From: Escherichia phage SUT_E420
Sequence record: OQ990039
Reading direction: 5' to 3' (one strand)
Length of the DNA: 64,000 nucleotides
A model generated the notes under the pieces. It was not told where the DNA came from. It saw nothing but the letters and a program-made list of their open reading frames with translations, and ran no database searches. Both the position numbers and the translations under genes were made by a program. Each line of letters begins with the position of its first letter. Position 1 is the stretch's first letter. Positions 1 through 30,931 of the stretch are shown here, one piece after another.

Positions 1-71
1 ACGAAAGAAACGTTTGTCTATTCCGAAATCAATAACATCTACTGTGTTAACGTAGGGTCTTGATACTTCCA

Positions 72-554
72 TTACTTCTTACCTCCAGTAGCTAGGGAAG
101 TAATTAAGTCCATGTAGTTTTGATCCCCAGCTCCAGCAATAATATTATTCTGGATGTTGGTCTGGTTAGCTGGAGTACGGGCTGCTGCCTTCACTTTCTC
201 CAATTCTACCATCATTTTCATTTCTTCCATTTTCATTTTATGTGCTTTCCAGAGAATATCCATAATATCTTGGTCAGAACCCATGCCAGTTTCTTCCAGT
301 TCCTCTAGTTTACGCTTGATAACCTCATCTAGAACACCAAATAAACGATCTCTGTTACGGAATCCACTCTCCATAAAAATATCGTTTAAGTAATTCTTAA
401 CTTCACTACGATTCATAATATCTCGGAAAGCAATTTCGGACATCCCAAGACTACGTGCGGCAGAAGGCACATCGCTGCCGCACTGTAAATACGCTTCAAT
501 TACATCCATCCCTTCAGGGGACATAAGATCTGGTACTAATACATCATTTGCCAT
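72..554 (-). CDS. hypothetical protein, possible helix-turn-helix
   Basis: 160-aa ORF co-oriented with and just downstream of the pb5-like gene; segment [20 protein letters not shown] looks HTH-like; no family assigned. Confidence 0.5.
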
Positions 555-564
555 ATTTCCTCCT

Positions 565-2664
565 TTAGGTAAGGCGTTGAATTATAAGTTTAATATTTGG
601 TAAGCATGCTTTCATGCCAATTATATTGCTCATAGAGGATTCTAACCAAATAGAGATATTATTATTTCCATCATTTCTCATATAATATGTTAGAGTATAG
701 TAACCCGTTTGACCTACTGATCCCGGCAACCCAGATACCCAGTACGGAGTTGGAGTATACCCAGCAGCCTGTAATTTACAAGCNNNNNNNNNNNNNNNNN
801 NNNNNNNNNNNNNNNNNNNNNNNNNNNNNNNNNNNNNNNNNNNNNNNNNNNNNNNNNNNNNNNNNNNNNNNNNNNNNNNNNNNGTTTGACCTACTGATCC
901 CGGCAACCCAGATACCCAGTACGGAGTTGGAGTATACCCAGCAGCCTGTAATTTACAAGCATTTACTACAGTACCTTTAATAGTAAAAAATGGTACATAT
1001 TCTCCTGCAGGTAGGGACAATATTTGGTGAAGTTTTTTATCGATAGTATTGCCACCCATTCTGAACCTACTATCTCCATATTCGGCGCCTTTAGATAGCA
1101 TTTCCGTAGGATTAAAGCAGCCAATACCTCCTGCAGACAACCATGTGTCATCCAGGAACTCCATAGTACATACAATTGCGCCATTTCTACTACTATTAAG
1201 ATCTAGTCCCACGGTGCCAACATGCACGGAACCATTACCCTGAAATACTATGTTACCAGATAGTACAGTACTTCCGCTACCACCTAGAAGTCTTAAAGGT
1301 AAAAGATTCTCACTCCAAACATCTCCATAATTGCTGCCTATTTTTGGAGGATTACTAGAAACATACCAAGATGCTGAAGGTAAAAAGTTATAAATACTAA
1401 CTACATTAGTATTTAAACCACCAACGTTACCACCTTTAATACTTGGTGCGTTATTGCTTTCCGTAGTGGGCAGCCCAAATGTTGCTATGCCAGAAACTCC
1501 AGTAGAGGGGGCACCCATACTCAAGTTACACCCAACATCACGAAAATCAGCTCTGCTACCTACATTAAAGTTTTTCTCAACAAAGTTAATAAACTTCCAT
1601 GACGTATTATTAACATTAACCCCTTTAATAATAAACTCTCTTGGGCTAAGTTTAATATCATTGCCAGTAAATAGCCCACTATCAATACTGTATCCTGAGC
1701 CATTGTATACTAGATTGGTAACATACCAAGTAATTTTAGATGGATAAATACCGAGGTGCTCACTATATATACCTATAGGCCCATTAGCAGCATCATTCGG
1801 ATCACCCATACTTTCCCAATAAGCATAGTTAGTGGGATCAGCACGTGCGAAACCTACAGAGTACTTAGGAGCCGAGGGATTGCTAGGGTTATCTATAAAG
1901 TTAAGAGCCCCAGAACTAGAAGCACCGTGCACAGCTCCAGCAGTGGTATAGTTAGGCCCTTCCATACCGTAAAGAACTCTATTGCAAGATCTACCACGAA
2001 CATATATGGCGTTAAATCCAAAGTTTCTAGCTCCGGGATGCCTAACGTAGTCGCTAGGGATAGTTATGGATCCTGAGCTGGGCACAATATATCCTGAACC
2101 ATCCCAGGCAGACTTATAAAGAGCGGCACCACCTAAGTACATTGCACTAGATGCAAATCCTCTACGCCCACTAAAGGCGCCAAACATATGCTGACATCCA
2201 GTACCATCTCTAAGCTTCTGGGGAATAGTTCCACTAGTTCCACTGTTAAAATAACCTACATCAAGGGATAGATCAGCACTAGCTGTTATTTGTGTTTTTA
2301 AGCCACCCTGGGACATGACCTGTGGATTTATAATTCCGTACGCCTTAGCACCTACCCCCATAGACATACCGGATAACATATGTCTAGAGCCATCTGAGAA
2401 CTCAATCTCCGTCAGCACAACTCTATTAGGATCATTATTATGTAACTGGGTAATTCTGCTAGGCATATCAGACCAGTAGTAATCTCCAGCACCTTGATCT
2501 AGCCTTAACCCTGTGGAGTGAGTTTCTGTTATGATAACATGGGGCATATCTGAATGGAATATGGTCTGAGAGTCAGGATTAATATGTTGATTAGTATCTC
2601 CGCCACTACCCCTGCGCAGAGAGAGTATAGATTTATTATTTAGCTTGCCAGCGAAAAAACTCAT
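565..2664 (-). CDS. oad: receptor-binding tail protein, pb5-like
   Basis: 699-aa Gly-rich ORF divergent from llp-type lipoprotein gene; includes about 59 artefactual residues from N-gap 782-883 plus duplicated flank, so true length is near 640 aa. Confidence 0.75.
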
Positions 2665-2683
2665 AAGTTCTCCAAAAATTTAA

Positions 2684-2712
2684 TTGCCTATATTGCTATA
2701 ATTCTGTATAAT
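2684..2712 (+). promoter_or_regulatory. sigma70-type promoter for llp (-35 TTGCCT, 17 bp, -10 TATAAT)
   Basis: TTGCCT at 2684-2689 and TATAAT at 2707-2712, followed by AGGAGA Shine-Dalgarno and ATG at 2744. Confidence 0.6.
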
Positions 2713-2743
2713 AGTATTATAAATTAAACATAGGAGAATGTAA

Positions 2744-2977
2744 ATGAAAAAATTATTTTTAGCTATGGCAGTGGTACTTCTTTCGGCTTGCTCTACTTTT
2801 GGTCCTAAAGATATTAAATGTGAGGCCTACTATGTACAAGATCATGTGAAATATAAGGCTAATGTTTTTGATAGGAAAGGGGATATGTTTTTGGTGTCAC
2901 CAATTATGGCCTATGGGTCTTTTTGGGCTCCCGTAAGCTACTTTACTGAGGGGAATACATGTGAGGGAGTTTTCTAA
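2744..2977 (+). CDS. llp: Llp-like lipoprotein (receptor-blocking superinfection exclusion)
   Basis: 77 aa; signal peptide MKKLFLAMAVVLLSAC with lipobox LSAC; divergent from receptor-binding protein gene. Confidence 0.8.
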   Translation: MKKLFLAMAVVLLSACSTFGPKDIKCEAYYVQDHVKYKANVFDRKGDMFLVSPIMAYGSFWAPVSYFTEGNTCEGVF

Positions 2978-3238
2978 GTAAAAACGACCTTAGTAACTAT
3001 CACCACTTAAGATAATCCTAGCGCAGAATTAGTCCAGGATGCCACACAAGACACTAGGGAAGGTATAATAAGAATATTTATACTAATCACTGCAATTGCT
3101 AGGGTATTCCAAATACCATACTCATAGGAGCATGAAAGATATGTCAAATAAAAGAAAGAACAGACGTGGAGAAGTGTACGAAGCGTGGGTTAATATTTAC
3201 GGATTTGGTTTTGTATTATTCTTAATCTTCGTAGGTTT

Positions 3239-3424
3239 TTGGTTAGCAGCTATGGCGGGGTGGCTATAATGGAATGGGTAATTATTGGCATATTCGTCTT
3301 ATTGATACTTCTCTTTGCAGGCTTACGTGTAATAGATACCTCTGTAACCCAAACAGAGATTAAATTAATGCAGTTGAGCAATAGATTATCTAGAATTGAA
3401 ACTTTATTAGAGGAGCGTAAATAA
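3239..3424 (+). CDS. small membrane protein (TM helix plus coiled coil)
   Basis: ORF with MEWVIIGIFVLLILLFAG hydrophobic N-terminus; likely true start at internal MEWVII (about 3269). Confidence 0.5.
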   Translation: MVSSYGGVAIMEWVIIGIFVLLILLFAGLRVIDTSVTQTEIKLMQLSNRLSRIETLLEERK

Positions 3425-3531
3425 TGGAATGGGTAATTATTGCACTACTGGGGATTGTGATTATTGGGCAATGTATCTTAGATAATCACTTAGCTAGAAT
3501 CGAAACCTTACTATCGGAGAAACATAAATGA
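3424..3531 (+). CDS. small membrane protein, paralog of preceding ORF
   Basis: 35-aa ORF MEWVIIALLGIVIIG... starting at TAATG overlap with upstream stop; ends ...IETLL-like as upstream paralog. Confidence 0.35.
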   Translation: MEWVIIALLGIVIIGQCILDNHLARIETLLSEKHK

Positions 3532-3722
3532 TGGAAGTGGCAATTACACTAATGGTAATATTAGTCTGGGTAATCCTCATTGTCTCTCGTATCGTGTATC
3601 TCCGCCTAAAAACTCTAGAAGCCCAGGTAAAACAACAACAAGTTATTCTAGAAAAGCTAGTACTACTGCAACGTTGTGATAGCACCCGTATTCTGCAAAT
3701 TGAGAGGGAATTAGATGTTTAG
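3528..3722 (+). CDS. small membrane protein
   Basis: 64-aa ORF, hydrophobic N-terminus ITLMVILVWVILIV, start overlaps upstream stop (ATGA). Confidence 0.5.
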   Translation: MMEVAITLMVILVWVILIVSRIVYLRLKTLEAQVKQQQVILEKLVLLQRCDSTRILQIERELDV

Positions 3723-3960
3723 TATTATAATTGCTTTTATTATCGGGATACTCGCGGGAGTTTTCGGGACGACTGCGGCAATCAATAAGCATCGGGAATA
3801 TATTGCGGGAGTGACGCGGGAGATTGCGGAAAGGGAGCGGAAGTTTGACGAGAAACGTGCGGAGTTTGAGCGAGAGTGGTCGGATGGATCTCGGGCGTCG
3901 CGGAAGAGATTCCGGGAGTTCAGACCAGAACACAGGTTTGATGACCCTTCTATGCGCTAA
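3715..3960 (+). CDS. small membrane protein with basic/acidic C-terminal tail
   Basis: 81-aa ORF, N-terminal TM segment IIIAFIIGILAGVFG, overlapping start with upstream ORF. Confidence 0.5.
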   Translation: MFSIIIAFIIGILAGVFGTTAAINKHREYIAGVTREIAERERKFDEKRAEFEREWSDGSRASRKRFREFRPEHRFDDPSMR

Positions 3961-4062
3961 TTCGACTTTTGTCAAATTTCATAAGATTACACATGGAGGT
4001 GTGTCCAGTGGCTCCCCAGATGAGAATGAGTCTCATTACCGCCCGGTACTTAGCAAGCTAAT

Positions 4063-4095
4063 AGTCACGGCATGTTATCATTACACACCGTGACT
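4063..4095. terminator. hairpin between convergent genes (possible bidirectional terminator)
   Basis: 8-bp stem AGTCACGG/CCGTGACT with 17-nt loop between the end of the plus-strand small-gene array and the dmp-like gene. Confidence 0.35.
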
Positions 4096-4111
4096 ATTTC
4101 AACTTTAATTA

Positions 4112-4846
4112 TTACGCAACTTTTAATTTCTCAATATATTGTTGCGGGCTGCAACTATATTCTGCGCGTTCTTCCTCGGTCATACTTTCCCAACATAATT
4201 TCAAACGATCAGCTAGGAACTGATAATCATTATCATCATCGAGAGATTCATCGATAAAGGTTTCACCTATCAATGCAACGCCGATTGATAGAATATCGTT
4301 AATGGCTTGCGCGTCCAGCGTTTTAAATCCGTATGATGCCGCCGCTGATAGCACGCCTTTATGATCGTCAATCATTGTAAAGTCAGCGTTTGGATATAAT
4401 TGTTTAAATAATTCAAAATAATACGATTTATAAATGGCGTCTTTGCTGTGGTATATCTCGCTAACTTTATCAGCTTCAAAATATTTGTGTAGTGTATCGC
4501 GGGAAAATACACGGATATTACTATCACCACGACCGCGCAACCCTTGTTTACGCAAATAATAATAGTCCGACTTGCTCATTAGTCGAGCGGTGCAAATAAT
4601 GTTTAAAGTATTTGCATCATTCATACATTGGCGCATATATTCAACCAATGGCAATAAAGTATCTTGCATTATTAAATGATGTTTGCAGGCTTCATTTTTA
4701 TACTTATTTAAATCTAAATTGCCCTCACTATCAAAGCAAGGCGCTACACGATGGAAAGAATTAATGATAGTGCCGTCTAAATCCCAAATCATGACGCGGG
4801 AAATATGCGGGAAATTACGGGAAATATTCATAATAGCTTTATTCAT
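4112..4846 (-). CDS. dmp: HAD-family 5'-deoxyribonucleotidase, Dmp-like
   Basis: 244 aa; DLDGT HAD phosphatase motif near N-terminus; size matches T5 pre-early Dmp. Confidence 0.7.
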   Translation of the reverse strand: MNKAIMNISRNFPHISRVMIWDLDGTIINSFHRVAPCFDSEGNLDLNKYKNEACKHHLIMQDTLLPLVEYMRQCMNDANTLNIICTARLMSKSDYYYLRKQGLRGRGDSNIRVFSRDTLHKYFEADKVSEIYHSKDAIYKSYYFELFKQLYPNADFTMIDDHKGVLSAAASYGFKTLDAQAINDILSIGVALIGETFIDESLDDDNDYQFLADRLKLCWESMTEEERAEYSCSPQQYIEKLKVA

Positions 4847-4925
4847 TTGTTACGTTCTCCATTAAAGGGATTTAGTTTATCCAGCATTACCCGCTATTTA
4901 TAAGCGGGTAATAATAAATCAACTA

Positions 4926-5318
4926 TTAAAGACCATAAGCCAACGCATCAGCAATAAAACTAATATCCTCACCTGATACATGGGAACGAATACCCGCGCA
5001 GGTATATACCTTTGCGCTCGCTAGCTGATCATCAAGGCAAGCGAGGCAAGGCGCGACAACTGCAAAGGCTAGGCCGGATTTTACTGCGTCGATGATAATC
5101 GTTTCTTGTTTCACCGTGTCAATATAAACGCCTTTTGCTTTAATATGGCTTGTTAGTTTGCCTTGCATATATGCAAATGTTGTAACCTGCATCGCATCAT
5201 TGAAATCTAACAATTCATCAATAACGTGCCACGCCTCGACGTGATAACGTTCACCATTAGAATAAACCAGAACAATGGAAGACTGAGCGCGATCGAATGG
5301 AATATTTTGCTTTTTCAT
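4926..5318 (-). CDS. hypothetical protein
   Basis: 130-aa ORF co-oriented with dmp-like gene, short intergenic gap. Confidence 0.5.
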   Translation of the reverse strand: MKKQNIPFDRAQSSIVLVYSNGERYHVEAWHVIDELLDFNDAMQVTTFAYMQGKLTSHIKAKGVYIDTVKQETIIIDAVKSGLAFAVVAPCLACLDDQLASAKVYTCAGIRSHVSGEDISFIADALAYGL

Positions 5319-5356
5319 ATTTATAAAACCCCAATTAGTTTAATAATGGATTTAAA

Positions 5357-5704
5357 TTATTTGATAATAATCTGCATCTGGTACGGCGTTAATTCACCGT
5401 TTACGGGTAGATTATTATCACTTAGCCACTCATAAAAAGCGCTATCGTCATCAAAAGGAACAACATCATTATCACGGTAATCTACGGAAATAACGCCATC
5501 AGTATTAGTTTTAGCGGCTAGGATAGGCCCGAAGCTGTAAACTTTATCAGATTCCATTTCATCCGGTGAAATNNNNNNNNNNNNNNNNNNNNNNNNNNNN
5601 NNNNNNNNNNNNNNNNNNNNNNNNNNNNNNNNNNNNNNNNNNNNNNNNNNNNNNNNNNNNNNNNNNNNNNNNGAAGTGAGCACGGCTAAACATGATATGA
5701 TCAT
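5357..5704 (-). CDS. hypothetical protein (N-terminus obscured by N-gap)
   Basis: ORF runs into N-gap 5572-5672; annotated N-terminus is not trustworthy. Confidence 0.4.
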   Translation of the reverse strand: MIISCLAVLTXXXXXXXXXXXXXXXXXXXXXXXXXXXXXXXXXXISPDEMESDKVYSFGPILAAKTNTDGVISVDYRDNDVVPFDDDSAFYEWLSDNNLPVNGELTPYQMQIIIK

Positions 5705-6134
5705 TTTAGTCGATTGTCATACTGGCTATTGCGGGGAAGGGAATACCGAGGAATACTTTGTTCCTGCTGGTACGGATCTGGACGCTTTCGCTCATGAAAT
5801 GGCTATTGATAATGCTTCTCGTTTTGGTAGCGATGGCTATGAAGACGAAGAAACTGGCGAATGGTATGAAAATGAAAACGTATATGCTGGCCTTTATCAT
5901 TATCAATTAAGTAAATCCGGCACATATGTAAACGGCGGCGATCCTATTAATTCCGTCATGAAATTAATTATTAAATATGGTGGCGTCGAAATAATTGATA
6001 ATAAAGCGGTAATATACGCAAATCGATTAAAACAGCTTGTTTATATTCCTGATAATACCCGATGGGAGGAATACGCTGTTTTACATGATGAATTAAAACG
6101 ATGTTTCAATGTTGAATCCTTACAGGTAGTTTAA
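5676..6134 (+). CDS. hypothetical protein
   Basis: 152-aa ORF starting right after N-gap; true start may lie in the gap. Confidence 0.5.
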   Translation: MSTAKHDMIILVDCHTGYCGEGNTEEYFVPAGTDLDAFAHEMAIDNASRFGSDGYEDEETGEWYENENVYAGLYHYQLSKSGTYVNGGDPINSVMKLIIKYGGVEIIDNKAVIYANRLKQLVYIPDNTRWEEYAVLHDELKRCFNVESLQVV

Positions 6135-6238
6135 TGTAAAGTTTTGTAAAGGTCGCCTTTTATGGTGGCCTTTTTTGTTATAATGCTTTTACACCAAAAC
6201 GGTGGATTAAAAATTTCCCAAAAATTTGGAGGCTTAAA

Positions 6239-6469
6239 ATGGTTGCTTACTCTTCTGCTACTCATCTGTTCACCGCTCAAGGCTGGGTATCTAACCGCGC
6301 CATTATTCATGAAATGGTGCAGGAGTTCGGCATTGCTAAAACTTATAACACCATCCAAGAACTATACAACGCCGATAAAATCGATCAGCAAACGGCGGGC
6401 TTTTTGCTGGACACGCTGAAAGCGGAACACTGTACTAAAAAACAAGCTGCAAAAATTGTTTTAATGTAA
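6239..6469 (+). CDS. hypothetical protein
   Basis: 76-aa ORF with upstream GGAGG-like ribosome-binding site. Confidence 0.5.
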   Translation: MVAYSSATHLFTAQGWVSNRAIIHEMVQEFGIAKTYNTIQELYNADKIDQQTAGFLLDTLKAEHCTKKQAAKIVLM

Positions 6470-6519
6470 TTAGTAACGGGGGATATTATATCCCTCACTG
6501 ACTAGGAGAATAAAAAAAA

Positions 6520-6669
6520 ATGGTTATTTTTCGAGCTATTCTGGCGGGTATCTTGGGCGCTATTTTATCGTTGTTTGCAATAGCTTTTGGCGTTCACGCC
6601 GTTATTATTGGCGCTGGCATTGCTGCGTTTTCTTATCTGCTGGGCTGCATGACTAGTAAAGGAGAATAA
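6520..6669 (+). CDS. small membrane protein (49 aa)
   Basis: Below ORF-track cutoff; AGGAGA ribosome-binding site then ATG; entirely hydrophobic; stop followed directly by next gene. Confidence 0.4.
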   Translation: MVIFRAILAGILGAILSLFAIAFGVHAVIIGAGIAAFSYLLGCMTSKGE

Positions 6670-6671
6670 AA

Positions 6672-6884
6672 ATGATCCGCAACGTTTCCCTTGCACGTTC
6701 GAAAGGCTTTAAGCTGGTGGATGTTAACACGTTCGAGCGGGAAGATTGTAAAATCGAATATGTAGCACGTAACAAAAATGCCTTTCGTGTTACCGAGAAA
6801 AAATTTGATAAGCGCGGCAACGTGATAGCTGAAACAGTTAAACACTTTGCCACCTTTTACGCTGCGTTTCGTGGGGTACTATGA
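6672..6884 (+). CDS. hypothetical protein
   Basis: 70-aa ORF, AGGAGA ribosome-binding site upstream. Confidence 0.5.
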   Translation: MIRNVSLARSKGFKLVDVNTFEREDCKIEYVARNKNAFRVTEKKFDKRGNVIAETVKHFATFYAAFRGVL

Positions 6885-7126
6885 AAAGCGTTATTGTTAT
6901 TATCCTTGCAATGGCTGGCGGTTTTATCGCCACCTTATTTAAAAATGACCCCATTTCATTGGGGATCTTTATGCTTTTATCTGGCTATCTAATCGGGAGG
7001 CTAACAAATGATTCAGCAAATTAAAACGGCTTTTCGTTTTTGGGGCGTCCTGCCTTCAATTGGTTTTATTCTGATAATTATTAGTCAGCTAATGATCATC
7101 GGCGGAACTATTTGGGAGCTATGCAA

Positions 7127-7471
7127 ATGATAATTTATGAAGGCAATCGTTTTGTTGCTAATTGCCGCCCAGCATTATTAGCAAACTATTTAAATCAGCT
7201 TTCCCCAGCTTATAAGGGCGTTATTAATATTTATGAGGGCAAGGCACATTATAAAATTAATGCGGTCGTTGCCCGTGAACTAGCGTTTCAATTTTTGACC
7301 TTTGCATCTTGTGACGTTCAGGTTATGGGTGAAGCATTAATTGCAGAAAATGAAGATGATTTTATTAATATTTTCCGCAAGGTATGTACCGAGCGCCTGA
7401 TAATGAAAGGCGCATATATTCAATCCACTGCGGATAGTATTGAAACAGCGTTTCGAAAGGTGGCGCAATGA
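7127..7471 (+). CDS. hypothetical protein
   Basis: ORF 7112-7471; likely start at MIIYEGNRF (ATGA overlap with a small upstream membrane ORF). Confidence 0.5.
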   Translation: MIIYEGNRFVANCRPALLANYLNQLSPAYKGVINIYEGKAHYKINAVVARELAFQFLTFASCDVQVMGEALIAENEDDFINIFRKVCTERLIMKGAYIQSTADSIETAFRKVAQ

Positions 7472-7572
7472 GATTATATATTTTCGTTGGTAATAGTAAG
7501 GCCGCTAATGATTCCGCTGGTGGCGATAACATTCGCCACTATTGGCAAAAATATATTTACTAGGGAGTTATT

Positions 7573-7767
7573 ATGAGTAATAAAATAGTTGTAACCAAGA
7601 TCAGTACAATGGTTGATGTTTTTTACGTGCCAGATACGCCGGAGAATCGGCAAGCGGTCGAGCGTGGCGAATATGATAAAGTGATTTATGATCACGATGG
7701 TTATTATCAGTATTTGGTGGATTCCTACGGGGAGGAGGAAAAAATCACGCATCGACTACCAGACTAA
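7573..7767 (+). CDS. hypothetical protein
   Basis: 64-aa ORF with AGGGAG ribosome-binding site; last gene before non-coding repeat region. Confidence 0.5.
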   Translation: MSNKIVVTKISTMVDVFYVPDTPENRQAVERGEYDKVIYDHDGYYQYLVDSYGEEEKITHRLPD

Positions 7768-8051
7768 TAATCACGGGGCGCAACTATCAGGGAGTGCCCC
7801 CAATTTTCAAATGAGAATGATTCTCATTTAACCGCGCCCGCGATGGTTAGCCTGCTAATGATTAGGGTGTTACGTGTCGCCTTGTGTGATCGTTAGCTCG
7901 CTAACTAATTTCTAAGCCTCCTCCAATTTTACCCGTGTTTTAGTATCCCCAACAAAATTAAACGCGTTAGAATGCGTTTGAGAGCGTTTTAGCTGTATAT
8001 TAGAATTATTCACTGCATAGGAATACTGTATATTTATACAGTAGGATAAGC

Positions 8052-8133
8052 TGTTGATAAGTCTGTTGATAACGCCTCAAAATGGCTAGGATTTTGTCAA
8101 GTCAAATCGTGCTGTTGATAAGTCTGTGGATAA
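8052..8133. repeat. cluster of four DnaA-box-like 9-mers
   Basis: TGTTGATAA at 8052, 8064, 8113 and TGTGGATAA at 8125 (reverse complement of TTATCCACA), all in direct orientation. Confidence 0.6.
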
Positions 8134-8149
8134 CTTAAATAATAGTGTT

Positions 8150-8330
8150 TCTCACTTCCATTCTTAAATACGAATCAGTATCATTCGCATTTCACTATCT
8201 AACTAATAATCATTCCACTTTTTAAATGAGAATCGTTTCACTTCCTGAATAATTCTCACTTCCATTCTTAAATGCGAATTATTATCATTCACATTCCGCT
8301 TTTTAAATGAGAATGATTCTCATTATCATT
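8150..8330. repeat. direct repeats and palindromes (GAGAATGATTCTC family)
   Basis: TTCTCACTTCCATTCTTAAAT(A/G)CGAAT occurs twice; palindrome AAATGAGAATGATTCTCATT at 8305-8324; similar palindromes near 7811 and 4024. Confidence 0.6.
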
Positions 8331-8366
8331 CGTATTCAGGCAAGCAGGGCAATTGCCCTGCGCTTT

Positions 8367-8968
8367 TGTGCAAATCCGACATTTGCCCCCATGGATTACG
8401 CGTGGGCGTGTATGTGCGAATCCGACAATTTTTGGTAGTGTGCAAATCCGACCCGAAAAATTTTTATAATGTGCGGATCCGACAATGAATTTTCCTAAAA
8501 ACTCCAGCAATCCGATGCTGCGCATCAATCCTGTGGAATTAACTAGAATATGTGCAAATCCGACATGGGTTTATTTGTGCGAATCCGACAAGATTTTTGT
8601 GACTTCGATTGGAGAGTGTGTGATTGTAAGAGTTTGGGGAGAAGTTGAGAGATCGAGAAAAATTTGAGGGAACTGCGAGAGGGGCGCATGTTTGGTGCGT
8701 AGCACCTGATTTGCGGGGATTTTGGGGAAGAGTTGAGAAGATTTGGGTTAATTTGAGATTAGTGCAGATAAAGTAAAATCTTATTAGCTAAATGGGGCAA
8801 AATAGCTTGACAAGTGAAAGTTTCTGTGGCTCTAAAAACTCAGGCAATCATGGGCCTTCGGCCCGAAATAATGCTGCCATTTTCAAGAGATTATATGTTC
8901 CTAAAAACTTAGGCAATTGTGCAAATCCGACCATAAATTTCTAGAAACACAATGTGCAAATCCGACAG
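8367..8968. repeat. dispersed 15-mer repeat family TGTGC(A/G)(A/G)ATCCGAC(A/C), about 8 copies
   Basis: Copies near 8367, 8413, 8439, 8470, 8551, 8576, 8928, 8954 in non-coding DNA; irregular spacing. Confidence 0.65.
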
Positions 8969-9503
8969 TAATTTCTGGAAATGTGTTTTCAAAAAATGTC
9001 TCCTAGAAATAACCGCCCTCCCCATAACCGCCCTGTATTAAACCGCCTAGTATATGTTCCTAGAAACTTAGGAGAACCGCCCTAGAAAGAGTGAGTATTT
9101 CGTGAGAACTCTGGAGTTTCTAGGAAAGTGTTGTGCCATCCTAGCAGATGAGCGGCAACAGGTGTATCATCTTGAATGTAAATTATGTGGTCAAAAGTTT
9201 TACTTTTATTTTAAATATAAGATCCCCCAGGGTTCTCATATAGAGCTTTGCCCCCGCCAGAAGGTCTCGTGATGTTTCTAGCAATTTATATTAAATTACT
9301 TATTAACTTGTCCTGTCGCTCCGTATCCTCCGCTACAAGTTAGTAATTTTAAATTACTGAACCACCACACCTTCTGTGTGGCAACTCTAAATGGTTAATT
9401 CTATTAACTCATAGAGTTATGATAACATACATTTAGCTATCTGTCAACGAGAGTTTGTATTTGAGTCTCGGTACAGGTATTGTGCACCGAGACATGCAGG
9501 ATC

Positions 9504-10388
9504 TTACAGTAACTCTTGGTATGCTTTTTGGTACGCCTCAGTGTCAGTAGGTGTATCTTTTGCTAGTGCAATTAGTTCATCTGTTATCTGAATGTTCGTA
9601 TTATAACGTGTGTGGAACTCGTTAGGAATTTCTAGGTATCTATTGATGAATGCTGCAGCAAGCGGTGTGACTAAACCAATCTCTAGAGATAGCTTAACTT
9701 GTTTTTCGTAGATTAAATATTGAGAATCAGATGGGGTTGGTGGGGTTACATCAATTTTCTCGGGTTCTTTTTCTGGAAGCAATGGATTATTATATAATGC
9801 TTCATCTGGAAGCACAGATTTACGCTCTTTAAATATATAAGTTTCTAGATCCGATGCTTTAGATCCTGAGTATACCGCAAAGATGCTAGCTTTACCCTGT
9901 GATGCCCTAACTGGTAAATAACTAGTAGGATAGCTTCTTAATGCATCATGGAATGGACTTCCTGAGTACTTGTATGTATCTCCATAGAGATCATCAATAT
10001 TCATTCGTTCATCTTCAAAGATGTGAAATGACTTAAATGGTGGAATGGTGAAGTATTCCATCTGTAACCCATAAACTAAGAAACGATGTGCATATGCACT
10101 GATTTTTAAGACTGTGAATGCTTTTTCACCTTCTTTATGGGCGTTGCCTTTTGAAGTAACTTGGTAACGTTTACAAAACATCTCTACTAGACGTTTCTCA
10201 TTAATACTAAGGGTGGAGTACAGTCGTCCACTTAATCCTATAAGTGCATCGAACATAAATGCTAGTTTATCTTTTTCTTCCTGGGTTAGTTCAGGAAATG
10301 GAAGTACTTTAGCATCAGGAACACTATTATTTTTCTTAGGTTTTGTTTTACCAGCGTTTTGTCTTAGTTTATCTTTAAAGTTATACAT
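9504..10388 (-). CDS. hypothetical protein
   Basis: 294-aa ORF, first gene of the long minus-strand block. Confidence 0.55.
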   Translation of the reverse strand: MYNFKDKLRQNAGKTKPKKNNSVPDAKVLPFPELTQEEKDKLAFMFDALIGLSGRLYSTLSINEKRLVEMFCKRYQVTSKGNAHKEGEKAFTVLKISAYAHRFLVYGLQMEYFTIPPFKSFHIFEDERMNIDDLYGDTYKYSGSPFHDALRSYPTSYLPVRASQGKASIFAVYSGSKASDLETYIFKERKSVLPDEALYNNPLLPEKEPEKIDVTPPTPSDSQYLIYEKQVKLSLEIGLVTPLAAAFINRYLEIPNEFHTRYNTNIQITDELIALAKDTPTDTEAYQKAYQELL

Positions 10389-10465
10389 TATTATCTCCCA
10401 TTTTTAAGGTCTGGATGACCTTCTTTTTATTTTAGAGCCTCCGTAGAGGCTCATGTATTAGAGGA

Positions 10466-11080
10466 TTAGCTACCTCTCTTATCTTCATTAATAGCAGCTC
10501 CCAACGCCTCCATAATAGCATCCTCTAAACTTCCATGTTTACCAGGATTATTAAAATGAATAGTACAAACAGAACTCCTAGAAACTCCAGCATCCGCAGG
10601 TGCTACGCTTCGCATATCAGATTCAAAAGCTTCTTGAGTATGTTTTAGCTGTACAGATGGGCCGTAATCTTCCACAAACTTATATGACTGCGTACTACTT
10701 ACCACACCCCCACAAGGAATATTGTGCATATCCGACATTAATCTTTTATCGGAGTTATTCAGCATTGCGATTGGTCCGGACGGCCATGAATCTCGAATAG
10801 TTACTGGAGCACTAGGACGGTTCACCTCAGTCTTCACGAGTTTATAACCAGCGTCTATTAGTGCATTAATCAGGTTATCAGCCGGGATGCGAGCCGTGCC
10901 AAAAATCTTACGAGCATCTTCGAGCTTACTCTCAAGATCTTTACAGGCTTTAAGGTCGGTGTGTGCAAATGTTAGCTTCATAGATTTGAATTGTACAGTA
11001 GCAGTTAAATCTTTAAAGCTGTAATCCCATGTGTTCAGTTCATGGTCTGGTACTACTTGAATAGGCTGTTGTGTAAACAT
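10466..11080 (-). CDS. hypothetical protein
   Basis: 204-aa ORF. Confidence 0.55.
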   Translation of the reverse strand: MFTQQPIQVVPDHELNTWDYSFKDLTATVQFKSMKLTFAHTDLKACKDLESKLEDARKIFGTARIPADNLINALIDAGYKLVKTEVNRPSAPVTIRDSWPSGPIAMLNNSDKRLMSDMHNIPCGGVVSSTQSYKFVEDYGPSVQLKHTQEAFESDMRSVAPADAGVSRSSVCTIHFNNPGKHGSLEDAIMEALGAAINEDKRGS

Positions 11081-11265
11081 TATTTATTCTCCAGTTTGTC
11101 TAACAGTTTATGGGCTGCTAGATTATATTGTTTAAGTTCACGGTTAAGGATTTGGTTCTCACACTTTAACTCTAGATTCTTGTTGTTAAGAATGTTGCAG
11201 ATTAGTAGAAGTGCTAGTATTAGTAACAGAGAACCTACGAGCATTAAAAGAAAAAGAGTTTCCAT
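11080..11265 (-). CDS. small membrane protein
   Basis: 61 aa, hydrophobic N-terminus LLMLVGSLLLILALLLI. Confidence 0.45.
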   Translation of the reverse strand: METLFLLMLVGSLLLILALLLICNILNNKNLELKCENQILNRELKQYNLAAHKLLDKLENK

Positions 11266-11498
11266 TATTTGATTCCCATGTAACGTTTAAGATATACGAT
11301 GAAGTCTTCTGCTGTATGCTCTACACTACCTTGAGCTACGAATAGCTTGAGAGCTTCACGTTGTAGTTTGAGCCCCGCTACCTCACCACGTAATTTTACT
11401 ACATCTTCTGCTAATTCTCTGGCTCTACGCATAATAGCAAAAGATACAAGTACTACGATGAATAACATAACTACTAAAATAATTGCTATGATTTCCAT
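11265..11498 (-). CDS. small membrane protein
   Basis: 77 aa, TM segment IIAIILVVMLFIVVLVSFAI. Confidence 0.45.
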   Translation of the reverse strand: MEIIAIILVVMLFIVVLVSFAIMRRARELAEDVVKLRGEVAGLKLQREALKLFVAQGSVEHTAEDFIVYLKRYMGIK

Positions 11499-11776
11499 AC
11501 TAACATCCAGCTTTTATCACACATTTGGGCATGATCTATCAATTCATTCATTGATGTATTGTTATCATAAATGCACTCTAGTATATACCTTCTGTCAAAT
11601 TCGTCAACCAAATATTCTACGTTATTTATTACTACTTTATACAGATCTGGGACTAGAGAGCATGTATTTGGTATGGGGCGGCTGCTTAATTCTATTTCAT
11701 TATAGCCCCATGTTGTTTTAAATAGTTTGTTACTAAGTGCTGCTAATGGATTTGACCATATAATATAGCTACTCAC
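11486..11776 (-). CDS. hypothetical protein
   Basis: 96-aa ORF overlapping neighbours by a few codons. Confidence 0.45.
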   Translation of the reverse strand: MSSYIIWSNPLAALSNKLFKTTWGYNEIELSSRPIPNTCSLVPDLYKVVINNVEYLVDEFDRRYILECIYDNNTSMNELIDHAQMCDKSWMLVWKS

Positions 11777-12215
11777 TATTTATCTCCATTCTTAACTTTG
11801 AAAACTTATTATACCAAACTATATGATTATCGTCAATTACAAATTTATGATAACATGCTGGTACGGTATAAGTTCCATAATCCGTGACACGCTGCACAAC
11901 CTTGTGTGCGCACAGTCGACAACCATGCCCTTCTAAATGAGATCTAGCAGTTTGCCAGTAATAACCATCATGATCTGGACAATAGATCTCGACTTGCTGT
12001 TGCATTGTTTTATAATTTACATGCTCATATCCAAAGAAAGCTCCATGAACTGCAACAGCTTTCTTGATAAATATAATATTTAGTGCTTCTTGTTGAAAGT
12101 CGGGATGTAGCTGCTTAATCTTGGTTCTATTAATAGACCCATCCGATTTGATAAACCTATTTATTGGGAAGTTGTTAGCTTCCTCGATTAATAATTCATT
12201 TATTTTATCACGCAT
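11769..12215 (-). CDS. hypothetical protein with Cys/His cluster
   Basis: 148 aa; CPDHDGYYWQTARSHLEGHGCRLCAHK suggests a metal-binding site. Confidence 0.5.
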   Translation of the reverse strand: MRDKINELLIEEANNFPINRFIKSDGSINRTKIKQLHPDFQQEALNIIFIKKAVAVHGAFFGYEHVNYKTMQQQVEIYCPDHDGYYWQTARSHLEGHGCRLCAHKVVQRVTDYGTYTVPACYHKFVIDDNHIVWYNKFSKLRMEINSE

Positions 12216-15136: not shown

Positions 15137-15745
15137 TTACCAATCGTTAACAACGCCGGAGAACTCAGAAGCAAAAACCTTTTCAAATTTCTCTGCAATT
15201 TCAGGATGATCTTTGCAGATCAGCTCAATACATGCTTCTGGAGTCATTCCTTCATCTTCAGGATCACCGTAGTATTTGTCCCAAAGATCATCAGGGATGA
15301 TATGCTCCGCCAAATCTTGGAAAGAGATTAACTGATAACGTTCTGCTTCCTCAGCGATAAGAATTTCGCACAGATCTTTATCTATATCGCTACGATAATC
15401 CGCAATTAATAGGGCATTGCAAGCATGGCATTCCCAGACCATCAAACGTTCAGAGATAGGATTAGACTTATCTTGAACGTAAGACTGGAACAAGGTTCGG
15501 AAAGTTGCCTTAACTTGTTCNNNNNNNNNNNNNNNNNNNNNNNNNNNNNNNNNNNNNNNNNNNNNNNNNNNNNNNNNNNNNNNNNNNNNNNNNNNNNNNN
15601 NNNNNNNNNNNNNNNNNNNNAAACGTTCAGAGATAGGATTAGACTTATCTTGAACGTAAGACTGGAACAAGGTTCGGAAAGTTGCCTTAACTTGTTCAAA
15701 CTTATCTGCTGCTGCGAAAACTAGAGCTTTATCAACTTTGTTCAT
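15137..15745 (-). CDS. hypothetical protein (inflated by N-gap 15521-15620 and duplicated flank)
   Basis: 202-aa ORF contains X run and repeated 25-aa segment; true length about 143 aa. Confidence 0.45.
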   Translation of the reverse strand: MNKVDKALVFAAADKFEQVKATFRTLFQSYVQDKSNPISERXXXXXXXXXXXXXXXXXXXXXXXXXXXXXXXXXXEQVKATFRTLFQSYVQDKSNPISERLMVWECHACNALLIADYRSDIDKDLCEILIAEEAERYQLISFQDLAEHIIPDDLWDKYYGDPEDEGMTPEACIELICKDHPEIAEKFEKVFASEFSGVVNDW

Positions 15746-19673: not shown

Positions 19674-19885
19674 GGCTTTCTCCTATCTTCAAAAANNNNN
19701 NNNNNNNNNNNNNNNNNNNNNNNNNNNNNNNNNNNNNNNNNNNNNNNNNNNNNNNNNNNNNNNNNNNNNNNNNNNNNNNNNNNNNNNNNNNNNNNCTAGA
19801 CTTATTTTCCAGATACCTAGCAGCATCATAGTGAATAGTTCTGCAAACATGGCTTTCTCCTATCTTCAAAAATTATTAAAGCCCC

Positions 19886-25090: not shown

Positions 25091-25664
25091 GTTCTTCTCT
25101 CCGACGTTTAGATTCTTTCATCATATGAGCTGCTACAACTTCGTGGTAGTAGTCATTAATGTTATCTTCTGGCAAGAAATGCTTAATAGTCTCTAGCTGA
25201 CAAATAACTCGATGAAGATGGTTATTTGGTAGACACAATTTTATGCCTGCAACAAATCCAGAGAAGCCTGGAACACTGAACATGGGTTGGGCTTCTACTC
25301 TACCTTCAGGGTTGATATTAAGCTCAATTGAGATACCCATTTTCATACTATAAAGCTGGCAATATTCTCCATTACCAGACCTTGACCNNNNNNNNNNNNN
25401 NNNNNNNNNNNNNNNNNNNNNNNNNNNNNNNNNNNNNNNNNNNNNNNNNNNNNNNNNNNNNNNNNNNNNNNNNNNNNNNNNNNNNNNGTTGATATTAAGC
25501 TCAATTGAGATACCCATTTTCATACTATAAAGCTGGCAATATTCTCCATTACCAGACCTTGACCAAACAGTGAAATCCTCATCAATTTGATCTTGGATTT
25601 CTGTAATTGCAAATTTAATTCTAGGGTCTAAATTATTCATCTTCACCTTCAAAGTCGCAATCAT
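25068..25664 (-). CDS. hypothetical protein (inflated by N-gap 25388-25487)
   Basis: 198-aa ORF with X run and duplicated segment; true length about 139 aa. Confidence 0.45.
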   Translation of the reverse strand: MIATLKVKMNNLDPRIKFAITEIQDQIDEDFTVWSRSGNGEYCQLYSMKMGISIELNINXXXXXXXXXXXXXXXXXXXXXXXXXXXXXXXXXXSRSGNGEYCQLYSMKMGISIELNINPEGRVEAQPMFSVPGFSGFVAGIKLCLPNNHLHRVICQLETIKHFLPEDNINDYYHEVVAAHMMKESKRRREEREKTKHQ

Positions 25665-27066: not shown

Positions 27067-27394
27067 ACATTTCTCCTAAAACTTGGGAGATAAANNNNNN
27101 NNNNNNNNNNNNNNNNNNNNNNNNNNNNNNNNNNNNNNNNNNNNNNNNNNNNNNNNNNNNNNNNNNNNNNNNNNNNNNNNNNNNNNNNNNNNNNTGCTGA
27201 CCACCTTCGATTTGAGGGGCGACTTCCACTTTGACTTCACGGAAGGCTTCGGGATCGAATTGTGGTGTGATACCTTCTAGATCTTCAACTAGAACTTTCT
27301 GTTTAAGTTCACCGTTGTCGGAGTATAGCTGAATAATCTGATTTTCATGAACAAGGTTAATTACGCCAGATTTAAGATTTTGATATGCTTTCAT
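26987..27394 (-). CDS. hypothetical protein (interrupted by N-gap 27095-27194)
   Basis: ORF crosses N run; C-terminal part unreliable. Confidence 0.35.
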   Translation of the reverse strand: MKAYQNLKSGVINLVHENQIIQLYSDNGELKQKVLVEDLEGITPQFDPEAFREVKVEVAPQIEGGQXXXXXXXXXXXXXXXXXXXXXXXXXXXXXXXXXXFISQVLGEMCGSSIKTPSPATCEEQPQEVLDSLST

Positions 27395-27744: not shown

Positions 27745-27911
27745 AGTTAATTCTTTATAGGTTAGATCTAGAAGATCTTTCTTACTGATAAGTCCTTCTC
27801 TATATTGGTCAATAAACATATCTATTCTAGAGTTCTCTGAGACTTCTATATCAGAAAGTTCAGCAAATATTTTTGCAAGTTTATCAATATCTTCCATACA
27901 TAACCTTAATT

Positions 27912-27988
27912 TGGTACTCCGGGAGGGATTTAAACCCCCGATCTCTCGGTTATCAGCCGAGTGCTTTAGATCGCTAAGCTACCGAAGC
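27912..27988 (-). tRNA. tRNA-Ile (anticodon GAT)
   Basis: Acceptor GCTTCGG/CCGGAGT, anticodon stem CTCGG/CCGAG with loop CTGATAA, CCA encoded. Confidence 0.7.
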
Positions 27989-27989
27989 A

Positions 27990-28217
27990 TTAACATTTTG
28001 CAGCAGAACGTTTGCCATTTCTAGGTGCACCTGGAAGTCGTGCACGTTCTGCCATTCTTCGCTTAATCTTTGAGATATTTTCTAGTGTTTGTTCTTCAGG
28101 CTTAATACCTGAAACACTACACCACTGATTACCATCCCATGCGGTAATGATCATAACACCATTACTCATGATCTTTTCTGTAAAAGTAATCCTCATTATA
28201 GCAACTCGTCTAAGCAA
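27990..28217 (-). CDS. hypothetical protein
   Basis: 75-aa ORF; probable start at internal Met. Confidence 0.35.
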   Translation of the reverse strand: MLRRVAIMRITFTEKIMSNGVMIITAWDGNQWCSVSGIKPEEQTLENISKIKRRMAERARLPGAPRNGKRSAAKC

Positions 28218-28489
28218 GAGGTATATTTAAGTTTACCATCTTTATCTACTTTGATTTCGACTTCCGCTCGTGGTACTTGACGAACTACACCATGAATCAT
28301 CTTATAGCGAATGCCTTTAGCTGGTTCATGCTCTTTTGGAAATACTTGCTTAACCGTTACTACCTTAAAACCCTCACGCGGTGTTAACACTACTACTTGA
28401 TCACCTTCTTTGATCTTCCAAGAGCCAGGAAATTCATAGGTATAGCGTTGACCACCAGTTTGGAACACAACAGAAAGATAACGTTTCAT
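28196..28489 (-). CDS. hypothetical protein
   Basis: 97-aa ORF downstream of promoter 28520-28548. Confidence 0.5.
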   Translation of the reverse strand: MKRYLSVVFQTGGQRYTYEFPGSWKIKEGDQVVVLTPREGFKVVTVKQVFPKEHEPAKGIRYKMIHGVVRQVPRAEVEIKVDKDGKLKYTSCLDELL

Positions 28490-28519
28490 TTGGCTTCCCT
28501 CTCATTAATTTATATAAAT

Positions 28520-28548
28520 ATTATAACAATAAATAAGAGAGAAAGCAA
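28520..28548 (-). promoter_or_regulatory. T5-early-type promoter (-35 TTGCTT, -10 TATAAT)
   Basis: 17-bp spacer, conserved leader. Confidence 0.6.
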
Positions 28549-28556
28549 ATGAATTT

Positions 28557-28724
28557 TTAATAAAGTTTAGTCACTTCATAAACTATACTACGAGATTCTT
28601 TATTACGTTCTATTAAATTAGAATATGCTTTTTCAGCTTCATTTTTAGTATTAAAGTCTATAACGTGGGAGGTATTCGCTCTATTTGATTGACTATACCA
28701 GATAACTACTAATAATTTAAACAT
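28557..28724 (-). CDS. hypothetical protein
   Basis: ORF 28557-28751 trimmed to internal Met because upstream part overlaps tRNA. Confidence 0.4.
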   Translation of the reverse strand: MFKLLVVIWYSQSNRANTSHVIDFNTKNEAEKAYSNLIERNKESRSIVYEVTKLY

Positions 28725-28738
28725 AATAGTCCTTAAGT

Positions 28739-28825
28739 TGGTGCTGGGCACAGGATTCGAACCTGTAACGGGATTACTCCTCCTGATTACAAATCAGGTG
28801 CATTCAACCATTCTGCCAACCCAGC
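28739..28825 (-). tRNA. tRNA, 84 nt with long variable arm, apparent anticodon TGT
   Basis: Perfect acceptor GCTGGGT/GCCCAGC, T-arm ACAGG-TTCGAAT-CCTGT, anticodon stem CCTGA/TCAGG with loop TTTGTAA; 15-nt variable region atypical for Thr. Confidence 0.55.
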
Positions 28826-28990
28826 AGAACCCGTTATTTCAACGGGATTTCTTTTTCAATAACAGGAGACTTATCAGTCATAACCGCCATTGCCATTTGT
28901 TGTAGAAATTCAAAGGTGAAGGCTACACGTTCTTCACCAATCTCTACTTCTACACGTTTCTTTTGTTTATCGATCTTGACTTTTAGGTTA

Positions 28991-29242
28991 TCAGCCATTA
29001 GAGAGTACAGTACTGGTAGTTGGCAATACTACAGATGAAGCAACAGTGTTTAAATGCTTTCTCCAGTCTAGGTTAAATTGTTTTCGAAACTCTTCATAAG
29101 GTTCTTCTGGATAAAAGCTAAAACCTCCTTTCTCATCATTCAGGATAACAGAGCCGTCAGTTTGTTCGTATGCTCGGTATGTTTCTCCAATAACAATAAC
29201 TCGTTTTTCGGTACTTTTATTACGAAACTCAAAAACGTGCAT
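28991..29242 (-). CDS. hypothetical protein
   Basis: 83-aa ORF. Confidence 0.45.
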   Translation of the reverse strand: MHVFEFRNKSTEKRVIVIGETYRAYEQTDGSVILNDEKGGFSFYPEEPYEEFRKQFNLDWRKHLNTVASSVVLPTTSTVLSNG

Positions 29243-29258
29243 AATGTTTCCTTAAAGT

Positions 29259-29334
29259 TGGAGCGGCTAGAGGGAATCGAACCCTACTCAGCGAGGCTTG
29301 GAAGGCCTGCGGCACAACCCGTGTGCTTAACCGC
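29259..29334 (-). tRNA. tRNA-Gly (anticodon TCC)
   Basis: Acceptor GCGGTTA/TAGCCGC, anticodon loop CTTCCAA, T-loop TTCGATT, CCA encoded. Confidence 0.7.
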
Positions 29335-29342
29335 TTATTGTT

Positions 29343-29418
29343 TGGCTGGAGAAGGAGGAATCGAACCTACCATTAACGGAGTCAAAGGCCGTTGTGCTAA
29401 CCGTTACACTACTCTCCA
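29343..29418 (-). tRNA. tRNA-Gln (anticodon TTG)
   Basis: Acceptor TGGAGAG/TTCTCCA, anticodon loop CTTTGAC, CCA encoded. Confidence 0.65.
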
Positions 29419-29424
29419 ATTATT

Positions 29425-29500
29425 TGGCTGGGATGCCACGGATCGAACGTGGAACCTTCGGAGTCAGAGGCCGACGATCTGCCAATTGATCTACATCCCA
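29425..29500 (-). tRNA. tRNA-Gln (anticodon CTG)
   Basis: Perfect acceptor TGGGATG/CATCCCA, anticodon loop CTCTGAC, T-arm CCACG-TTCGATC-CGTGG. Confidence 0.65.
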
Positions 29501-29512
29501 ATAATTTTTATT

Positions 29513-29707
29513 CTACGGAAAAATTGTTGTTGGCTCAGATTCTTCCAAACGTTTGCCTTCATGATCAACACGAATAACGCCGCATCCTTCGCAAATCACA
29601 ACTGCACCATAACCTTCTTTGACCTCAGCTTCTGTAATCAAACCAGAAAGATCACCAGTATCTTTACCCCACATATCAATGGAGCATTGTTTGCAGAAAT
29701 CAGCCAT
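29513..29707 (-). CDS. small zinc-ribbon-like protein
   Basis: 64 aa with CxxC (CKQC) and CEGC pairs; sits between tRNA genes. Confidence 0.5.
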   Translation of the reverse strand: MADFCKQCSIDMWGKDTGDLSGLITEAEVKEGYGAVVICEGCGVIRVDHEGKRLEESEPTTIFP

Positions 29708-29732
29708 ATTTTATTTCCTATTTAAGTTAATT

Positions 29733-29809
29733 TGGGGTGGCTAGTGGAATTCGAATCCACATAGGCCTGATTCACAATCAGGATCATTAACCAATTATGA
29801 TATAGCCAC
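29733..29809 (-). tRNA. tRNA-His (anticodon GTG)
   Basis: Perfect acceptor GTGGCTA/TAGCCAC, anticodon stem CCTGA/TCAGG with loop TTGTGAA, CCA encoded. Confidence 0.75.
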
Positions 29810-30175
29810 AATTGAAAACTCGCAGGGTTAGCGAAACCTTCCTCAATTAGCATGTTCTAGAATACTAATCAAGTTATCTCCTATTGCACGCAGCTCAAGA
29901 CGAGTACGAATTTTCAATTGTGGCGGCTCTCAGAAACTCTTCTACTCTAGTCTTAGCAGCTTACTCCCGAACGCATGTCGGGGAAGTCTTACTAAGCGCA
30001 TCAAATAGCACCGTTACACTTTGAGCCATTGGTGTATCAAGAAGCAGAAGGACTTGAACCTTCACGAGATAGACCATTTATCTCAGCCGCTTTATGAGGT
30101 ATGTTGCAGGGAGTGGATGTTCCCTATAAACCTTTTAGGCAGCCCCGTCTACCGATTCCGGCATACTTCAGGATT

Positions 30176-30270: not shown

Positions 30271-30282
30271 ATATAAATTGTT

Positions 30283-30562: not shown

Positions 30563-30567
30563 ATGTT

Positions 30568-30913: not shown

Positions 30914-30931
30914 CTGCGTTTTTCTTGAAAT

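Follow-up and report, generated by a model that had tools for sequence, protein, structure and literature searches.

The part of Escherichia phage SUT_E420 in which late tail genes stand next to pre-early genes is almost certainly the ordinary end-repeat arrangement of T5 (Tequintavirus), collapsed to one copy in a short-read draft, with A1 left unassembled in a gap of Ns. The window, by which we mean the whole stretch of 64,000 nucleotides of record OQ990039 that was analysed, presents in succession terS, pb5 (oad), llp, small membrane ORFs, a long terminal repeat (from dmp to the repeats of the injection stop signal, iss) and early genes, an order that matches T5. The arrangement is thus the already-known textbook T5 map, and nothing unusual about it is demonstrated. 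The evidence comes from alignments to T5 (NC_005859), from PHROGs and Pfam assignments, and from comparison with the sister genome SUT_E1520.

Gene order and extent of the terminal repeat

The pb5 gene, which codes for the receptor-binding tail protein, occupies positions 565-2664 on the minus strand; its product matched phrog_4815 (E = 1.5e-255) and shows 93.9% amino acid identity to T5 pb5. The final late gene ahead of it is that of the terminase small subunit (T5.156 homologue; 72-554, minus strand), as annotated in SUT_E1520 and in the same order in T5. On the other side of pb5 lies llp (2744-2977, plus strand; phrog_1119, E = 5.5e-19), encoding the lytic conversion lipoprotein, a FhuA-inactivating protein of the Cor type of superinfection exclusion, with 98.7% amino acid identity to T5 Llp. 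A pb5-type receptor-binding protein and llp are therefore found directly upstream of the right repeat according to PHROGs, amino acid identity and the T5 order. Five small ORFs at 3141-3960 (plus strand), assigned by transfer of the SUT_E1520 annotation and by the T5 map, correspond to the homologues of T5.159-162 and one extra ORF, and include matches to phrog_5851 and phrog_6447, both described in PHROGs as 'membrane protein'. These small ORFs make up the final unique segment ahead of the right terminal repeat. In Pfam, no match was obtained for pb5, Llp, Dmp, A1 or A2, the only one being DUF7566 in the T5.011 homologue; PHROGs were informative instead.

The original prediction had described the pb5/llp pair as followed by small membrane-protein genes, a dmp-like gene, a repeat region and early genes. 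All of this order was recovered, with dmp at 4112-4846 (minus strand), non-coding DNA rich in repeats between about 7768 and about 9000, and the early genes beginning at 9504 (minus strand). It had further been supposed that the window spans the junction between the right unique end and a terminal repeat, and here too the alignment agrees. The gene order is the same as in T5, at the terminus of T5 and not away from its ends. The alignment of the T5 right end stops at window position 8832, which equals T5 121750, the physical end, and that of the T5 left end carries on past 8832 into T5.018, as fits the collapsed or circularised assembly that had been guessed.

By homology, the single collapsed copy of a T5-type long terminal repeat (first-step-transfer DNA) extends from 4002 to 8832, the boundaries at about 4002 and about 8832 resting on T5 and vB_EcoD-Elw and not on physical ends. 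On the left, the start of the T5 repeat (111532 / 1) aligns to window position 4002, and 'Right Repeat 1' of vB_EcoD-Elw begins 109 nt before dmp, which corresponds to position 4003. On the right, the physical right end of vB_EcoD-Elw aligns to 8832, as does that of T5. The copy, which corresponds to roughly 27851-38128 of SUT_E1520, comprises 4,831 positions, including 100 N, and would measure about 10,278 bp with the gap filled as in SUT_E1520, versus 10,219 bp in T5. Its first gene, approximately 110 nt from the repeat start, is dmp, coding for a deoxynucleoside-5'-monophosphatase (phrog_415) with 94.3% amino acid identity to T5 Dmp. Next to it lies the homologue of the pre-early gene T5.002 (4926-5318, minus strand; 91.6% amino acid identity; phrog_4576), and the stretch 6239-7767 (plus strand) is filled by rightward pre-early ORFs, namely the T5.012-T5.017 homologues together with small extras, identified by the SUT_E1520 annotation and by blastn to T5 7515-9144.

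The repeat ends on the right in an untranslated iss region (7768-8832; T5 annotates iss at 9140-10149) which contains inverted repeats and DnaA-type box pairs. An IRD'-spacer-IRC' element of 132 nt was located at 8026-8157, and its inverted partner sits in the segment with which SUT_E1520 fills the gap. Two pairs of DnaA or DnaA-like boxes, with 3 bp between the boxes, read TGTTGATAA-gtc-TGTTGATAA at 8052-8072 and TGTTGATAA-gtc-TGTGGATAA at 8113-8133; paired DnaA boxes have been described previously (bioRxiv 10.1101/866236). Of the eight TGTGCRRATCCGAC repeats, six fall within this region, alongside palindromic repeats that are AT-rich. According to the T5 alignment and a repeat scan, a non-coding spacer (8833-9503) leads from the repeat end to the first left-unique gene and holds two further copies of TGTGCAAATCCGAC, at 8918 and 8953. 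The T5.018 homologue (9504-10388, minus strand), with 294 aa as in T5 and 93.5% amino acid identity, is, on the T5 map, the gene with which the unique region opens after the left terminal repeat. The leftward early block thus runs from T5.018 on, directly after the repeat, and the alignment extends to T5 position 12999.

Contig joints and the pb5 reading frame

Nine runs of exactly 100 N are present in the window. Six of them are flanked by an exact duplication of 77 nt, which is the contig overlap of SPAdes at k = 77, while the remaining three have no overlap and correspond to 5,547, 222 and 652 bp in SUT_E1520. We rejected the idea that the N runs are in-place masks, since six are accompanied by duplicated 77-mers and the other three stand for lengths other than 100. 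The methods published by the source laboratory report contigs from SPAdes 3.15.3 and the joining of multi-contig phages in SnapGene (PMC10668671).

One of these joints (784-883) lies inside pb5, with an exact 77-nt overlap (707-783 = 884-960). There is no sequence missing at this joint, and SUT_E1520 is continuous there. The pb5 ORF of 699 aa is inflated, the true gene having 1,923 nt and coding for 640 aa, because the 100 N and the 77-nt duplicate amount to 59 in-frame codons. Since the 177 nt added in this way are a whole number of codons, the frame is kept, giving rise to ORFs that look intact and are false. The N run within the receptor-binding gene had been missed on first reading.

The gap at 5573-5672 and the absence of A1

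No ORF of the size of T5 A1 had been seen between 3.0 and 9.5 kb, which is literally true, the largest ORF being dmp with 244 aa. From this, a terminal repeat unlike that of T5, or a rearranged one, had been proposed, and neither was borne out. The absence of A1 coincides exactly with a 100-N scaffold gap at 5573-5672, which has no flanking overlap and had been overlooked; A1 seems to be absent because this gap in the assembly replaces its expected position. Both ORFs abutting the gap end mid-gene exactly at the Ns, with their 5' ends lost: 71 of 85 aa are present in the T5.003-like ORF (5357-5572, minus strand; detected by tblastn), and 153 of 164 aa in the phrog_6741 ORF (5673-6134, plus strand).

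The 100%-identical sister genome SUT_E1520 fills the gap with 5,547 bp, at positions 31011-36557 of its own record. This interval contains A1 (554 aa, phrog_1745, 94.6% amino acid identity to T5 A1), two small ORFs, A2 (135 aa, phrog_1725, 100% identity to T5 A2), two more small ORFs, an IRC-spacer-IRD repeat and a T5.011 homologue of 336 aa with the Pfam domain DUF7566. From this identity we infer that the gap in SUT_E420 would hold the same A1/A2 segment. Searches with tblastn and blastn found A1, A2 and the other genes of the segment nowhere else in the 64-kb window, the sole match being the expected 132-nt inverted repeat. A misjoin mediated by repeats was also considered for this position and rejected, as no direct repeat links the breakpoints and the joint consists of Ns, not of fused sequence.

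A gap content that includes A1 and A2 and differs from that of SUT_E1520, for instance by a hegG-like homing-endonuclease insertion or through a mixed population, perhaps breaking the assembly, is improbable. It would be in line with the variation of this part of the repeat among T5-like phages, hegG being present in T5 and not in SUT_E1520, and with the fact that the assembly of a further isolate, SUT_E520, broke elsewhere in the same repeat. However, the rest of the window, both gap flanks included, matches SUT_E1520 at 100% identity, and a 555-bp island of the segment that was assembled in SUT_E520 is also 100% identical.

We consider it highly improbable that about 5.5 kb with A1 and A2 were truly deleted within the terminal repeat and that an N spacer came to lie by chance at the deletion joint. 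Such a deletion would agree with the lack of A1 and A2 homologues throughout the window and with a gap whose true length, without a 77-nt overlap, is not fixed. Nevertheless, reads would span a real joint and yield an assembly without Ns, whereas here the flanking ORFs are cut exactly at them. In addition, the two gap flanks lie within 900 bp of each other in none of 443 related phage records, and SUT_E1520, identical at every other base, possesses the segment. Plaques were obtained with the phages of this collection, and burst sizes were 116-441 (PMC10668671), which also speaks against the loss. Hardly to be expected, for the same isolate or a sub-population of it, is a real deletion or divergent replacement of the A1-A2 segment that caused the assembly break. 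If true, a T5-like phage could be viable while lacking A1 and A2, which would imply another way to finish the entry of its DNA and to break down that of the host.

Relocation of the segment to the approximately 40 kb of genome outside the window, that is, a genuine pre-early rearrangement, has next to no probability, given that the window is colinear with SUT_E1520 throughout its ten sequenced blocks and shows no rearrangement, that A1 and A2 lie between the T5.003 and T5.011 homologues in SUT_E1520, T5 and vB_EcoD-Elw, and that published surveys ascribe misplaced dmp, A1 and A2 in T5-like records to assembly errors that the terminal repeats give rise to (bioRxiv 10.1101/866236).

Discussion

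A repeat collapsed in a draft assembly would explain both the gene order and the missing A1. T5-type virion DNA would carry at both ends a direct repeat of about 10 kb with dmp, A1, A2 and the injection stop signal, and a de Bruijn assembly would merge both repeat copies. With a single copy left, the right unique end would adjoin the repeat, and the repeat the left early genes. The draft appears to have been put together manually from SPAdes contigs, with spacers of 100 N between them, and the spacer at 5573-5672 probably stands for about 5.5 kb of repeat with A1, A2 and their neighbours. By analogy with T5, the left repeat copy would enter the cell first, halting at iss, and A1 together with A2 would then permit entry of the remaining genome. 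As in T5, pb5 would bind FhuA, and Llp would block FhuA against superinfection.

Biologically the finding carries little weight, as the region follows the known map of T5 and the anomaly comes down to a gap in the assembly; its value lies in the method. In most T5-like records that have been deposited, late tail genes stand beside pre-early genes as a result of collapsed terminal repeats. When a gene seems to be absent in a scan, N runs should be checked first, and a 100-N spacer with a 77-nt duplicate should be recognised as an addition of 177 nt, or 59 codons.

Comparison with related genomes

SUT_E1520 (OQ885479.1) shares all ten non-N blocks of the 64-kb window at 100.000% identity and in colinear order. 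It is a complete assembly with the same collapsed-repeat topology but, unlike the window, it is contiguous and has the sequence that is absent at the three true gaps. It carries neither 100-N spacers nor 77-nt duplications, except for a 77-nt redundancy between its own record ends. SUT_E520 (OQ990040.1, 'partial genome') comes from the same laboratory and has the same sequence and the same joints of 100 N with a 77-nt overlap. It also loses A1 and A2 to gaps in the terminal repeat, at positions other than those in the window, and its repeat retains only dmp, the 555-bp island and what follows from the iss end onward.

In T5, the right terminal repeat occupies 111532-121750 and is preceded by the right-end genes oad, llp and T5.159-162, and the left repeat occupies 1-10219 and is followed by T5.018. 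In contrast to T5, the window has one repeat copy in sequence instead of two, and 100 N stand in place of the genes from A1 to T5.011. It also lacks hegG. Following the T5.011 homologue it has an additional ORF of 164 aa (phrog_6741) without a counterpart in T5, another additional small ORF separates the homologues of T5.159 and T5.160, and the small ORFs at 6887-7124 differ. To either side of the repeat, gene order, strands and gene sizes agree with those of T5, and an iss with paired DnaA-type boxes is common to both phages.

Relationship to SUT_E1520 and assembly joints

When window positions 1-12000 were searched by megablast against the phage collection, 483 phage records were matched, nearly all of them T5-like (Tequintavirus and relatives). 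The top match was Escherichia phage SUT_E1520 (OQ885479.1), with 100% identity, the 12,000-base query being spread over 17,270 bases of its record. In a blastn comparison with SUT_E1520, the whole window was resolved into ten colinear blocks, each with 100.000% identity, 0 mismatches and 0 gaps, and between them lie nine N runs, each exactly 100 long. At six of the nine (784-883, 15521-15620, 19696-19795, 25388-25487, 37911-38010 and 59525-59624), the 77 nt preceding the Ns recur exactly right after them, and, since SUT_E1520 is unbroken at these joints, no sequence was lost there. The other three have no overlap and conceal real sequence, measured on SUT_E1520 as 5,547 bp (5573-5672), 222 bp at small hypothetical ORFs (27095-27194; record 9898-10119) and 652 bp within the gene for a 'putative replication origin binding protein' (61064-61163; record 83960-84611). 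Such joints are consistent with the concatenation of de Bruijn contigs (k=77), a customary 100-N spacer being put between neighbours. Each duplicated joint contributes 177 extra nt (100 N plus 77), equal to 59 codons, so that the frame is preserved and ORFs across a joint appear intact and 59 residues over-long. The sister phage SUT_E520 (L002, OQ990040, a 'partial genome') has joints of the same type at different positions (757-856, 4370-4469 and 5025-5124). Two of them lie within the terminal-repeat region and delete most of the repeat, including A1 and A2, leaving a 555-bp island, and its receptor-binding gene is annotated at just 141 aa because a joint interrupts it.

The SUT_E1520 GenBank record carries an identical 77 nt at its start and end, as an untrimmed circular SPAdes contig does. 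Window positions 37015-37091 run uninterrupted across this start/end point, and thus the record represents a circle with a collapsed repeat, opened at an arbitrary position. On the basis of electron microscopy, SUT_E1520 has been described as a contractile-tailed myovirus (PMC10668671), whereas its deposited genome is that of a T5-type siphovirus, base-for-base the same as the window and SUT_E520 in all overlaps, a discrepancy suggesting that the lysate was mixed or that samples were confused.

A1 and A2 probably fall in an assembly gap

To map genes in the first 12 kb, the SUT_E1520 annotation was transferred to window coordinates and combined with PHROGs matches. terS (72-554, minus strand) is followed by oad, encoding the receptor-binding protein pb5 (565-2664, minus; phrog_4815, E=1.5e-255), llp (2744-2977, plus), which matches phrog_1119, and five small plus-strand ORFs (3141-3960), including phrog_6447 "membrane protein". 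The 699-aa pb5 ORF is an artefact, as the joint at 784-883 adds 59 codons to a protein of 640 aa, the length found in T5. Next come dmp (4112-4846, minus), the T5.002 homologue (4926-5318, minus), small rightward ORFs that extend from beyond the gap to 7767, non-coding DNA rich in repeats and the T5.018 homologue (9504-10388, minus). The predicted order of pb5/llp, small membrane-type ORFs, dmp, repeat region and early genes was thereby confirmed. It is also correct that the sequenced bases of 3.0-9.5 kb hold no A1-sized ORF, the longest one there being dmp (244 aa).

The original prediction took this absence to mean a repeat unlike that of T5 or a rearrangement, having overlooked the N run at 5573-5672. 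The gene order is that of T5 and the expected A1 site is the N run itself: the T5.003-like ORF stops at the Ns (5572; 71 of 85 aa left), and the phrog_6741 ORF begins at them (5673; 153 of 164 aa left). The SUT_E1520 interval between the same flanks (6896-12442 of L001, a stretch of that record; 5,547 bp) holds the beginning of the T5.003 homologue and then A1, whose 554-aa product matches phrog_1745 ("DNA transfer protein"; E=1.5e-243) and is 94.6% identical to its T5 equivalent. A pair of small ORFs separates A1 from A2 (135 aa; phrog_1725), which has 100% identity to its T5 equivalent, and a second such pair follows. The rest of the interval consists of non-coding DNA in which the iss repeat has an inverted partner, the T5.011 homologue (336 aa, DUF7566) and the beginning of the 164-aa ORF. 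No copy of these genes occurs elsewhere in the 64-kb window.

As a search for a natural deletion, 400 nt from each gap flank were joined and run in sensitive mode against the phage collection, a precedent being one place covering at least 80% of the query, with both halves within 900 bp. None of the 443 records matching one or both halves places the flanks that close. Moreover, phages of the source laboratory formed plaques with bursts of 116-441 (PMC10668671), which makes a genuine absence of A1 and A2 from the isolate very unlikely. Judged from these sequence comparisons, the missing A1 is attributable to an assembly gap, whose content in the SUT_E420 isolate we infer rather than observe.

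Repeats in the iss region

The counterpart of the T5 injection stop signal (iss) region lies at 7768-8832. AT-rich palindromic repeats span 7804-8336, and a 132-nt element at 8026-8157 has its inverted partner, 78.8% identical, in the gap segment of SUT_E1520. Two pairs of DnaA-type boxes with 3-bp spacing were found, TGTTGATAA-gtc-TGTTGATAA at 8052-8072 and TGTTGATAA-gtc-TGTGGATAA at 8113-8133; the same paired boxes occur in IRD'-spacer-IRC' and IRC-spacer-IRD in Davison's comparison of 25 T5-like phages (bioRxiv 10.1101/866236). Within the 64-kb window, TGTGCRRATCCGAC is confined to 8367-8966, where it has eight copies that share one orientation, six within the predicted terminal repeat and two just past its predicted end at 8832.

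Comparison with the T5 terminal repeat

The T5 start of repeat was aligned to window position 4002, and "Right Repeat 1" of vB_EcoD-Elw, annotated as beginning 109 nt ahead of dmp, would put it at 4003. The alignment with the T5 right end terminates at 8832 (T5 121750), as does that with the Elw record, in which both repeats are present, while the alignment with the T5 left end continues past this point to T5 12999. Together, these alignments place the predicted repeat equivalent at 4002-8832. If the SUT_E1520 sequence is put into the gap, its length becomes 10,278 bp (4,831 - 100 + 5,547) versus 10,219 bp in T5. The alignments to both T5 ends bear out the proposal that the window, as part of a circularised or collapsed assembly, covers the point where the right unique end meets a terminal repeat. 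Colinearity inside other records, named beforehand as evidence against it, was indeed seen in many, among them SUT_E1520, EC142 and BUCT632, but these are collapsed, permuted assemblies of 103-109 kb; where a record retains both repeats, its end interrupts the alignment.

By analogy with T5, pb5 would bind the receptor and the left repeat copy would enter first, transfer halting at iss. Pre-early genes would then be expressed, A1 and A2 permitting second-step transfer. A1 may additionally drive host DNA degradation, Dmp dephosphorylating the dNMPs released, and Llp would block the receptor in infected cells.

In T5 (NC_005859), the left terminal repeat (1-10219) carries dmp, T5.002, T5.003, A1, T5.005, A2, T5.007-010, T5.011-017 and iss (annotated at 9140-10149), followed by T5.018 on the minus strand, and the right end carries terL, terS, oad, llp and T5.159-162 ahead of the right terminal repeat (111532-121750). 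In its sequenced bases, the window has exactly this order, with a single repeat copy between both unique flanks. Amino acid identity to the T5 counterpart ranges from 91.6% (T5.002) through 93.5% (T5.018), 93.9% (pb5) and 94.3% (Dmp) to 98.7% (Llp). Three segments of the window are without a T5 counterpart: an additional small ORF that separates the homologues of T5.159 and T5.160 (3288-3421), the 164-aa phrog_6741 ORF after the T5.011 homologue (5673-6131) and a pair of small ORFs ahead of the T5.015 homologue (6887-7124). The T5 homing endonuclease gene hegG is missing from SUT_E1520. Overall, the genes follow the order known from T5, the terminal repeat being collapsed.
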